From the sequence record AF039877.1: a DNA stretch of 1,126 nucleotides; one strand, written 5' to 3'. Source of the DNA: a phage. A model generated the notes under the pieces. It made no database searches, had not been told where the DNA came from, and saw only the letters and a list, made by a program, of their open reading frames with translations. The translations under genes were made by a program, and so were the position numbers. This document shows positions 1-1,126 of this stretch, piece after piece. The stretch's first letter is position 1. Each line of letters begins with the position of its first letter.

Positions 1-25
1 CTAACCTGTGNACACACTAGATATT

Positions 26-499
26 ATGGCATGTAAAGATTTTGAATGTAGGCTCAACAACNCTCGTAAGATTTTTGGCAAGGCTCGTATTCCCGCTGAT
101 AATCTAATTAATACACTAATCGATGCTGGTTATAAGCTTGTGAAGACTGAGGTTAACCGTCCTAGTACTCCTGTGACTANNCGAGATCCGTGGCAATCGG
201 GGCCAATTACANTGTGGAACAGTCCTAAAATAACGTCGGATTTGCACAATGTTCCATGCGGTGGCGTTATAGAAAATAANNCCTCATATCGAGTTGGTGA
301 AGATTATGGACCTTCTGCACAATTGANACATACTCAAGAAGCTTTTGAATCTGACATGAAAAGCGTAGCACCTGTGGATACTGAAGGTTTTAAAAGTCCC
401 ATCTATGTTACTCACTTTAATAATCTTAGGCCTGGGAGTATAAATGATACTATCCTTGAAGCACTAGGAGCTGTTATTAATGAGAATAANAAGGATTAA
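26..499 (+). CDS. hypothetical protein (157 aa from ATG-26; 163 aa if GTG-8 is the start)
   Basis: Frame 2 is open from 5 to the TAA at 497-499, preceded by an in-frame TAA at 2-4, so the gene starts inside the window. About 164 stop-free codons is unlikely by chance in AT-rich DNA. None of the 9 N-containing codons in this frame (nac, nct, ann, ntg, aan, ncc, ana, aan) can be a stop. No Shine-Dalgarno motif precedes either GTG-8 or ATG-26, so the start is uncertain. The product has diverse composition and 3 Cys (CKDFEC, VPCGG), with no motif I recognise. Confidence 0.5.
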   Translation: MACKDFECRLNNXRKIFGKARIPADNLINTLIDAGYKLVKTEVNRPSTPVTXRDPWQSGPITXWNSPKITSDLHNVPCGGVIENXXSYRVGEDYGPSAQLXHTQEAFESDMKSVAPVDTEGFKSPIYVTHFNNLRPGSINDTILEALGAVINENXKD

Positions 500-716
500 T
501 AATTCCTAATACATGAGCNNCNACGGAGGCTCTAAAATAAAAGGAAGGTCATCCAGACNTTANAAAATGAGAGATAANTAATGTANNAACCTTTAAAGAT
601 ANACNTAAGACAAANTGCNTGGTAAAANAAAACCTAAAGAGAACATTAATGTTCGTAATGCCAANGTATTACCATTTCCAGAANTGTTTCAGGAAGAAAA
701 AGATAAGTTAGCATTT
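500..716. other. non-coding spacer, stop-dense in all three + frames, low sequence quality
   Basis: Stops at 500-502, 507-509, 514-516, 533-535, 538-540, 568-570, 575-577, 579-581, 606-608, 623-625, 635-637, 647-649 and 709-711 close every + frame between 500 and 608. Thirteen of the 30 Ns lie in 519-628. Two purine tracts, GGAGG (525-529) and AAGGAAGG (541-548), have no start codon at SD spacing. The 3' boundary may be 608 rather than 716 if the downstream ORF starts earlier. Confidence 0.4.
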
Positions 717-941
717 ATGGTTGATGCCCTTCTAGGGCTAAATGGAGGTTTATATTCCTCACTCAATATTAATGAGAAACGTTTAGTAGAGATGTTTTGT
801 AAGCGTTATCAAGTTANTTCAAAGGGCAATTCTTATAAAGAAGGTGAGAAAGCATTCACAGTCTTAAAGATTAGCGCCATATGCACATCGTTTCTTAGTT
901 TATGGGTTACAGATGGAATACTTCACCATCCCATCATTTAG
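717..941 (+). CDS. hypothetical small protein, 74 aa (frame open from 609, so the true start may be upstream)
   Basis: Frame-0 ORF from ATG 717 to TAG 939-941. The same frame is stop-free back to 609 and contains two NTG codons (615-617, 684-686) that could be starts if N is A, G or T. The only N codon inside 717-941 (ant, 816-818) cannot be a stop. AGGAAG at 691-696 is about 20 nt upstream of ATG-717, too far for a classic SD. The C-terminal ~20 residues are moderately hydrophobic (ISAICTSFLSLWVTDGIL). No motif recognised. Confidence 0.35.
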   Translation: MVDALLGLNGGLYSSLNINEKRLVEMFCKRYQVXSKGNSYKEGEKAFTVLKISAICTSFLSLWVTDGILHHPII

Positions 942-967
942 CTAACCTCTGCGATAGAGTCTTCTAA

Positions 968-1126
968 AGCATCCGCNNTGCAGNTAAGCAGTCTGAAATT
1001 AATGCTAAGCAATCAGAGTTAAATGCCAAAGATTCTGAGAATGAGGCAGAAATTTCCGCAACATCTTCTCAGCAATCTGCAANTCAGTCTGCCTCCTCTG
1101 CTACTGCTTCTGCTANTGGTGCTAAA
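968..1126 (+). CDS. partial CDS (3' end runs off the window; no canonical start found): phage tail-fibre-like protein segment with xAxxSxx heptad repeats
   Basis: Frame 2 is open from the codon after TAA 965-967 to the window end (53 codons): SIRXAXKQSEINAKQSELNAKDSENEAEISATSSQQSAXQSASSATASAXGAK. Heptads run NAKQSEL / NAKDSEN / EAEISAT / SSQQSAX / QSASSAT with A/S at position 2 and S at position 5. No in-frame ATG, GTG or TTG lies between 968 and the repeats. N codons in this frame (nnt, gnt, ant, ant) cannot be stops. The tail-fibre label rests on recalled similarity to the lambda Stf and T7 gp17 shaft repeats, not on a search. Confidence 0.45.
980..1042 (+). repeat. three imperfect tandem 21-nt units, each encoding one heptad (AXKQSEI, NAKQSEL, NAKDSEN)
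   Basis: Units at 980-1000, 1001-1021 and 1022-1042. Units 2 and 3 match at 13 of 21 positions by hand alignment, with the GCn-AAr-nnn-TCn-GAr core conserved. Unit 1 matches unit 2 at about 12 of 20 unambiguous positions. Confidence 0.5.

Follow-up and report, generated by a model that had tools for sequence, protein, structure and literature searches.

The L-shaped tail fibre of phage T5 is the product of the ltf gene, pb1, whose chain has been divided into an anchoring domain (residues 1-40), a trimeric coiled coil (41-218), a rigid fibre (219-1263) and a chaperone that is auto-cleaved after residue 1263 (PMC12750041); the gene carries fibre domain, tip and self-cleaving chaperone together (PMC4690869). 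On the T5 tail, unassigned density for about 50 N-terminal residues of pb1 has been described as intertwined with the p132 collar, and p132, like p140, is specific to T5-like phages (PMC10038345). [quoted passage not shown] In that structure a long alpha-helix begins at T40 (T39 in T5), and the helices of the three chains form a coiled coil that leaves the LtfC collar radially (PMC10713586). Apparently only the first turns of the helix were modelled, the MD section naming residues 43-52 as the super-helical C-terminal fragment (PMC10713586). LtfA differs from T5 Ltf in its length of 1076 aa, in diverging past the N-terminal part, and in having LtfB as a branch protein.

Here we analyse a stretch of 1,126 nucleotides of phage DNA (sequence record AF039877.1), called the window throughout, in which a piece of the T5 fibre gene lies beside DNA from the T5 early region. 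Compared by blastn with phage genomes, the window splits in two, at 1-943 and 940-1126. Its right-hand part, window 942-1126 on the plus strand, aligns with nucleotides 127-312 of the ltf coding sequence in AM084272 and encodes residues 43-104 of the 1396 in pb1; its left-hand part is early-region DNA, separated from ltf by about 74 kb in T5. The best explanation overall, and one that we hold to be very probably right, is that a coiled-coil piece of ltf, codons 43-104, sits inside a chimeric AluI clone of T5 DNA.

The identity of the right-hand fragment is plain at the level of DNA. Window 940-1126 corresponds to T5 positions 85931->85744 (approximate, in NC_005859) and to nucleotides 125-312 of AM084272, with a blastn identity to T5 ltf of 96.3% when Ns are counted. 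Base by base, AM084272 gives 181 matches, 1 mismatch, 1 missing base and 5 Ns, a comparison that takes in two junction bases common to both fragments; of the called bases, 181/182 match T5 ltf, apart from the one that is missing. The protein searches agree: the heptad peptide discussed below hits positions 43-104 of the 1396-position profile of PHROG 24369 ('tail fiber protein') with E=4.7e-20, and PHROG tail-fibre profiles were matched at E=1e-15 to 1e-20. A Pfam scan of the same peptide found no family, its single line being a meaningless SecA P-loop match at E=0.2. The original prediction, made from the sequence alone, had placed the right edge of the window in the 5' part of a tail fibre gene and had proposed a search of the translation against fibre families; the gene is indeed a fibre gene, with the significant PHROG tail fiber match given above.

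What the window carries is a fragment of ltf and not a gene. It holds 62 of the 1396 codons, cut off from the start codon and the neighbours that the gene has in T5 and marred by read errors, and is otherwise the same gene with the same heptads. Codons 1-42 are missing, and there is neither a start codon nor a ribosome-binding site for the piece in the window. The collar-anchoring domain (aa 1-40, which binds p132/LtfC) is not within the window, the ltf DNA beginning at codon 43. At the other end the long fibre domain, the receptor-binding tip (970-1263) and the self-cleaving C-terminal chaperone (1264-1396) lie past the right edge and exist in the T5 gene, so the prediction that the receptor-binding end would fall outside the window was right. 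The idea that the window ends within the 5' part of a fibre gene needs dividing: codons 43-104 are there, but the start of the gene is absent and the ltf DNA sets in abruptly at 942, on an AluI site.

The repeat that first drew attention to this region is real. At 960-1126 on the plus strand, Ltf 49-104 is made up of eight heptads of the form x[A/S]xxSxx (SSKASAA, AAKQSEI, NAKQSEL, NAKDSEN, EAEISAT, SSQQSAT, QSASSAT and ASANSAK). In the raw read, translated in frame 2 from 980, seven of them appear as AXKQSEI, NAKQSEL, NAKDSEN, EAEISAT, SSQQSAX, QSASSAT and ASAXGAK, and 12 of the 14 cells fit the pattern of Ala or Ser at position 2 and Ser at position 5; T5 itself fits in 14/14, which bears out the consecutive heptads reported from the read. 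The two misses are an X that derives from an N and a G that comes from a base change at 1118 (A in T5, G in the window). In the full-length T5 protein the heptad register continues unbroken from about residue 49 to 209, which makes 23 heptads.

The frame of the read also had been suspected near 977, and with reason. The stretch SSKASA (960-977, frame 3) belongs to the same open reading frame and the same register as the heptads in frame 2, SSKASAA being Ltf 49-55. Between them lies a patch of read errors at 976-984 (plus strand), where one base is missing relative to T5 (CCG-CNNTGCAGN against CCGCTGCTGCAGC, also shown as CCG-CNNTGCAG against CCGCTGCTGCAG) and three Ns occur; the switch from frame 3 to frame 2 arises because the missing base lies beside the NN at 977-978.

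Could the heptads be nothing but a chance product of a low-complexity, Ala/Ser-rich translation, unrelated to fibres? The composition is indeed rich in A and S, BLASTP against lambda Stf reaches only E=0.024, and no Pfam family matches. Yet the DNA is near-identical to an annotated and experimentally studied fibre gene, the PHROG fibre profiles match at the values given above, and the periodicity exceeds that of all but 2 of 50,000 composition-preserving shuffles of its 49 residues, those 2 reaching a score of 12 when the best of 7 registers was taken each time (shuffle mean 6.9, sd 0.87). The error-free T5 sequence of Ltf 43-104 scores 16, a value that 0 of 20,000 shuffles reached. We dismiss chance as an explanation. 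A recent tandem repeat of the DNA was considered as the origin of the heptads. It was rejected because the DNA, compared with itself at lag 21, reaches an identity of only 0.50, the values for lags 18 and 24 being about 0.25; the heptads are a diverged repeat at the level of the protein.

Comparable heptads in other phage fibres had been named in the original prediction, and both comparisons were borne out. The lambda Stf heptads AAKTSET, NAAASQQ and SAATSAS are found literally in lambda orf-401, the N-terminal part of Stf, which contains AAKTSETNAAASQQSAATSAS; the same x[A/S]xxSxx heptads score 14/14 there in the best 49-aa window. Against Ltf 43-104 the longest run shared with orf-401 is 6 residues, and the BLASTP value of E=0.024 over the 62 aa, composition-adjusted, is weak; likeness is therefore claimed for the repeat pattern only, and it is at this level that the stretch in the window would be said to resemble Stf, as far as comparison of the sequences goes. 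Outside the part of Ltf that the window holds, residues 264-281 of orf-401 are identical to T5 Ltf 138-155 over 18 residues (ATAAENSARAAKTSETNA), which suggests that coiled-coil shaft modules may have been exchanged, or strongly conserved, between otherwise unrelated siphophage side fibres. Lambda Stf differs from T5 Ltf in its attachment to the tail, p132 and p140 being confined to T5-like phages (PMC10038345). In T7 gp17 a similar heptad stretch lies in the rod region, at about residues 150-270, and scores 11/14; residues 241-249 are identical to Ltf 95-103, the 9-mer SATASANSA, inside the window. The T7 repeat is short and less regular, it belongs to a podovirus fibre whose N-terminal domain, which binds the tail, is unrelated, and the likeness shown between gp17 and Ltf is that of the repeat. 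The x[A/S]xxSxx heptad does point to the coiled-coil shaft of a phage fibre.

Window 942-1126 encodes the first third of the alpha-helical coiled-coil domain of pb1 (aa 41-218), the known proximal coiled coil that joins the collar anchor to the O-antigen-binding fibre. When the window's own 49 residues were given to AlphaFold2 as a single sequence, helices were predicted at 4-33 and 37-44 with a mean pLDDT of 94.5, which agrees with the cryo-EM helix of DT57C that begins at T40 (PMC10713586). Positions 2 and 5 of the heptad, spaced 3+4, would be the a/d core positions with small Ala and Ser side chains, and the charged and polar residues (N, K, Q and E) would be exposed to solvent. Residues 1-40 of the three pb1 chains anchor beneath the p132/LtfC collar, and from about residue 39-41 onwards the chains would zip into a parallel three-helix bundle that runs radially from the tail and bears the rigid fibre domain and the O-antigen-binding tip. 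Experimental models of such a bundle cover only about 10-13 residues at the start of the helix, and come from the DT57C homologue; for T5, the coiled coil at 41-218 is a statement of the providers of the pb1 cryo-EM structure (PMC12750041).

The rest of the window tells a different story from the tail-fibre module that had been expected throughout it. Fragment A, at window 1-943 on the plus strand, runs from 12399->11463 in NC_005859, the reverse complement of that record, with 95.8% blastn identity to T5 over 1-943; once its 25 Ns are set aside, 904 bases match, 11 differ and 3 single-base indels remain. It contains the C-terminal part of T5.019 (ORF019, hypothetical; window 8-499, plus strand, about aa 40-202 with the stop codon included) and the N-terminal 119 codons of T5.018 (window 581-945, plus strand), a protein of 294 aa in T5, both placed by the T5 annotation. 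T5.018 is annotated in AY692264 as a '33.8 kDa early protein'. In the read, two surplus bases (at about 590 and 877) scatter it over frames 2, 3 and 1, and its frame terminates at a TAA made by the junction itself (AGC TAA, 940-945). Both parts match PHROG families of unknown function, T5.019 PHROG 5271 at E=6e-75 and T5.018 PHROG 8583 at E=4e-38, and a Pfam scan of the two upstream ORFs found no family. Going by 455 matching phage records, mostly Salmonella and Escherichia phages, T5.019 and T5.018 are conserved among T5-like phages. Within T5.019, window 235-248 (GTCGGATTTGCACA) is the 'direct repeat D copy 10' of AY587007, one of the short repeats dispersed in the T5 genome. The early genes T5.019 and T5.018 thus stand before the ltf piece in the window where T5.135-138 stand before ltf in T5, and the inference that the whole window belongs to a structural module fails: 1-943 is early DNA, some 74 kb from ltf.

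The two fragments meet at 940-943, where the alignments place an AGCT, the AluI site (AG^CT), that is common to both T5 parents. The early region reads ...TTTAGCT|CTTTCC and ltf reads ...GCAGAGCT|AACCTC; with more of the flanks, the early region in T5 is ...CATCATTTAG|CTCTTTCC, ltf is ...GCTGCAGAG|CTAACCTCTGCG, and the window is ...CATCATTTAG|CTAACCTCTGCG, so that across the join it reads ...CATCATTTAGCTAACCTCTGCG... The outer ends of the window are AluI ends as well, or nearly so. In T5 an AG precedes fragment A, which puts the left end exactly on an AluI cut (GAAG|CTAACC), and on the right T5 continues as G|CTGC (AAAG|CT), so that the window stops 1 nt before the cut. At the AGCT density of these T5 regions, 4.2-5.5 per kb, we estimate the chance that all four fragment ends would lie at AluI cuts, or no more than 1 nt away, at about 1e-9. 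Three AGCT sites within fragment A (135, 340 and 469) were left uncut, and the digest must therefore have been partial.

A history of cloning, an AluI shotgun chimera, would be the most likely explanation of these ends. The window would be the low-quality sequence of a clone insert in which two partial-digest AluI fragments of T5 were joined blunt end to blunt end, the first a 942-bp early-region fragment with T5.019 and the start of T5.018, the second an ltf fragment of about 186 bp; ltf would lie beside early genes because the two fragments were ligated together. The chimera explains why the piece lacks the tail-module context of ltf in T5, where pb3, pb4 and the collar gene lie upstream of it. 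Besides the uncut sites, two details count against a clone of this kind. At the right end 1 nt is lacking before the AluI cut, which trimming of the end or of vector might explain, and both fragments open with CTAACCT after the cut (window 1-7 and 942-948; in T5, GAAG|CTAACCTTTGC and GAG|CTAACCTCTGC). The chance of the latter is about 1e-3 given the CT; it lies outside the clone model and may be a coincidence. A self-ligated, circularised fragment A was considered and rejected, since beyond CTAACCT the sequence goes on as ltf does, not as fragment A opens. Nor does the junction encode a fusion protein: a T5.018-Ltf fusion is rejected, as the TAA at the junction ends the T5.018 frame and ltf follows in another frame and without a start codon.

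A junction of this kind could in principle have arisen in the phage, as a genuine in vivo rearrangement in a variant or defective T5 genome, by illegitimate recombination at the 4-bp AGCT microhomology. The microhomology is present, the two pieces run in the same direction on the T5 genome, and both deletion mutants and fibreless ltf mutants of T5 are known, among them T5st0 (AY692264, 113 kb) and the hd1 mutant (PMC10038345). A simple deletion is nevertheless rejected, since the T5 coordinate decreases from 12399 to 11463 along fragment A and resumes far higher, at 85931. Recombination by way of a concatemer would lose the terminal repeat with the pre-early genes as well as all DNA to the right of about position 85.9 kb, and the product would presumably be non-viable. 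Rearrangement also gives no reason for AluI sites at the window's outer ends, and no independent record or contig bears the junction, whether among the 181 matching phage records or among viral, genome and metagenome contigs. We regard such a rearrangement as very unlikely. A version of it in which a real recombination product in the T5 population was subcloned, so that only the outer AluI ends come from cloning, is highly unlikely in our judgement.

Searches for the junction bear on these readings directly. With a junction-centred 200-mer, blastn found 0 of 181 matching phage records spanning the join, the matches ending at 943 or beginning at 940; the same 200 bp found no match among plasmids, and a junction 30-mer had 0 exact matches in the viral, genome and metagenome contig collections. 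The absence of the junction from these databases supports the chimera without proving it. It also speaks against a T5-like phage in which a lateral tail-fibre gene naturally lies directly downstream of a T5.018 homologue. Tequintavirus records have been deposited with varied start points and orientations, and fibre genes are mosaic, which gives this idea some footing; but the match stops at the junction in all 181 records, ltf begins at codon 43 without a start codon or ribosome-binding site while T5.018 is cut at codon 119 of 294, and on both sides the letters, save for Ns and clusters of read errors, are those of T5 itself. A natural gene order of this kind is extremely unlikely.

The quality of the read gives some weight to another alternative, in which the join is computational, produced by mis-assembly or by stringing together two reads or records that are unrelated. 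The window has 30 Ns in its 1126 bases, half of them within 490-690, and most differences from T5 other than Ns are concentrated at 1-50 and 540-750, an error profile that suggests that at least two reads were merged; a 9-mer, AGCTAACCT, shared by the ltf site and by the place in T5 where the window's left end comes from, could have misled a naive overlap step. That 9-mer stands at the start of the window, however, rather than where fragment A ends, and alone could not have made the join. The join falls exactly on a restriction site of both parents, the outer ends are restriction sites too, which argues for physical fragments, and 921-976 is free of Ns and matches T5. We consider a computational join very unlikely. 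Under the chimeric clone, the clustering of Ns and errors would have the look of two opposed end reads of an insert of about 1.1 kb, merged mid-way.

The non-N bases are near-identical to T5 on both sides of the join, so the DNA beneath the read errors is that of T5, not of a relative. Nothing in the window is new, T5 pb1 and its coiled-coil domain having been described already. Since the adjacency of the two fragments is apparently an artefact of cloning, extending the contig downstream, which had been proposed as a way to find the remainder of the fibre gene, is not meaningful for this molecule. In a chimeric and error-laden window, inferences from adjacency are unsafe, and its main value is in quality control: taken at face value, windows of this kind could yield false gene adjacencies, false fusions and false 'new' fibre genes.

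The comparison with T5 also separates two versions of Ltf among the T5 records. Where it can be read, the window follows the version of AM084272, AY587007 and AY692264, with EL at codons 42-43 and A at 54-55; the RefSeq protein (NC_005859/AY543070) differs, with DV at 42-43 and GP at 54-55 where the others have EL and AA. These codons correspond to window 940-947 and 974-980. The AluI site at ltf codons 42-43 exists only in the EL/AA version (AM084272, AY587007, AY692264). With Gly-Pro inside a coiled coil, the RefSeq record seems to be in error at this point. Upstream of ltf, two small RefSeq ORFs (T5.136/T5.135; positions 4450-4874 of locus L002, from NC_005859) have been recognised as a frameshift-split LtfC/p132 collar protein (PMC10713586), and this split is probably another error in the T5 reference annotation.
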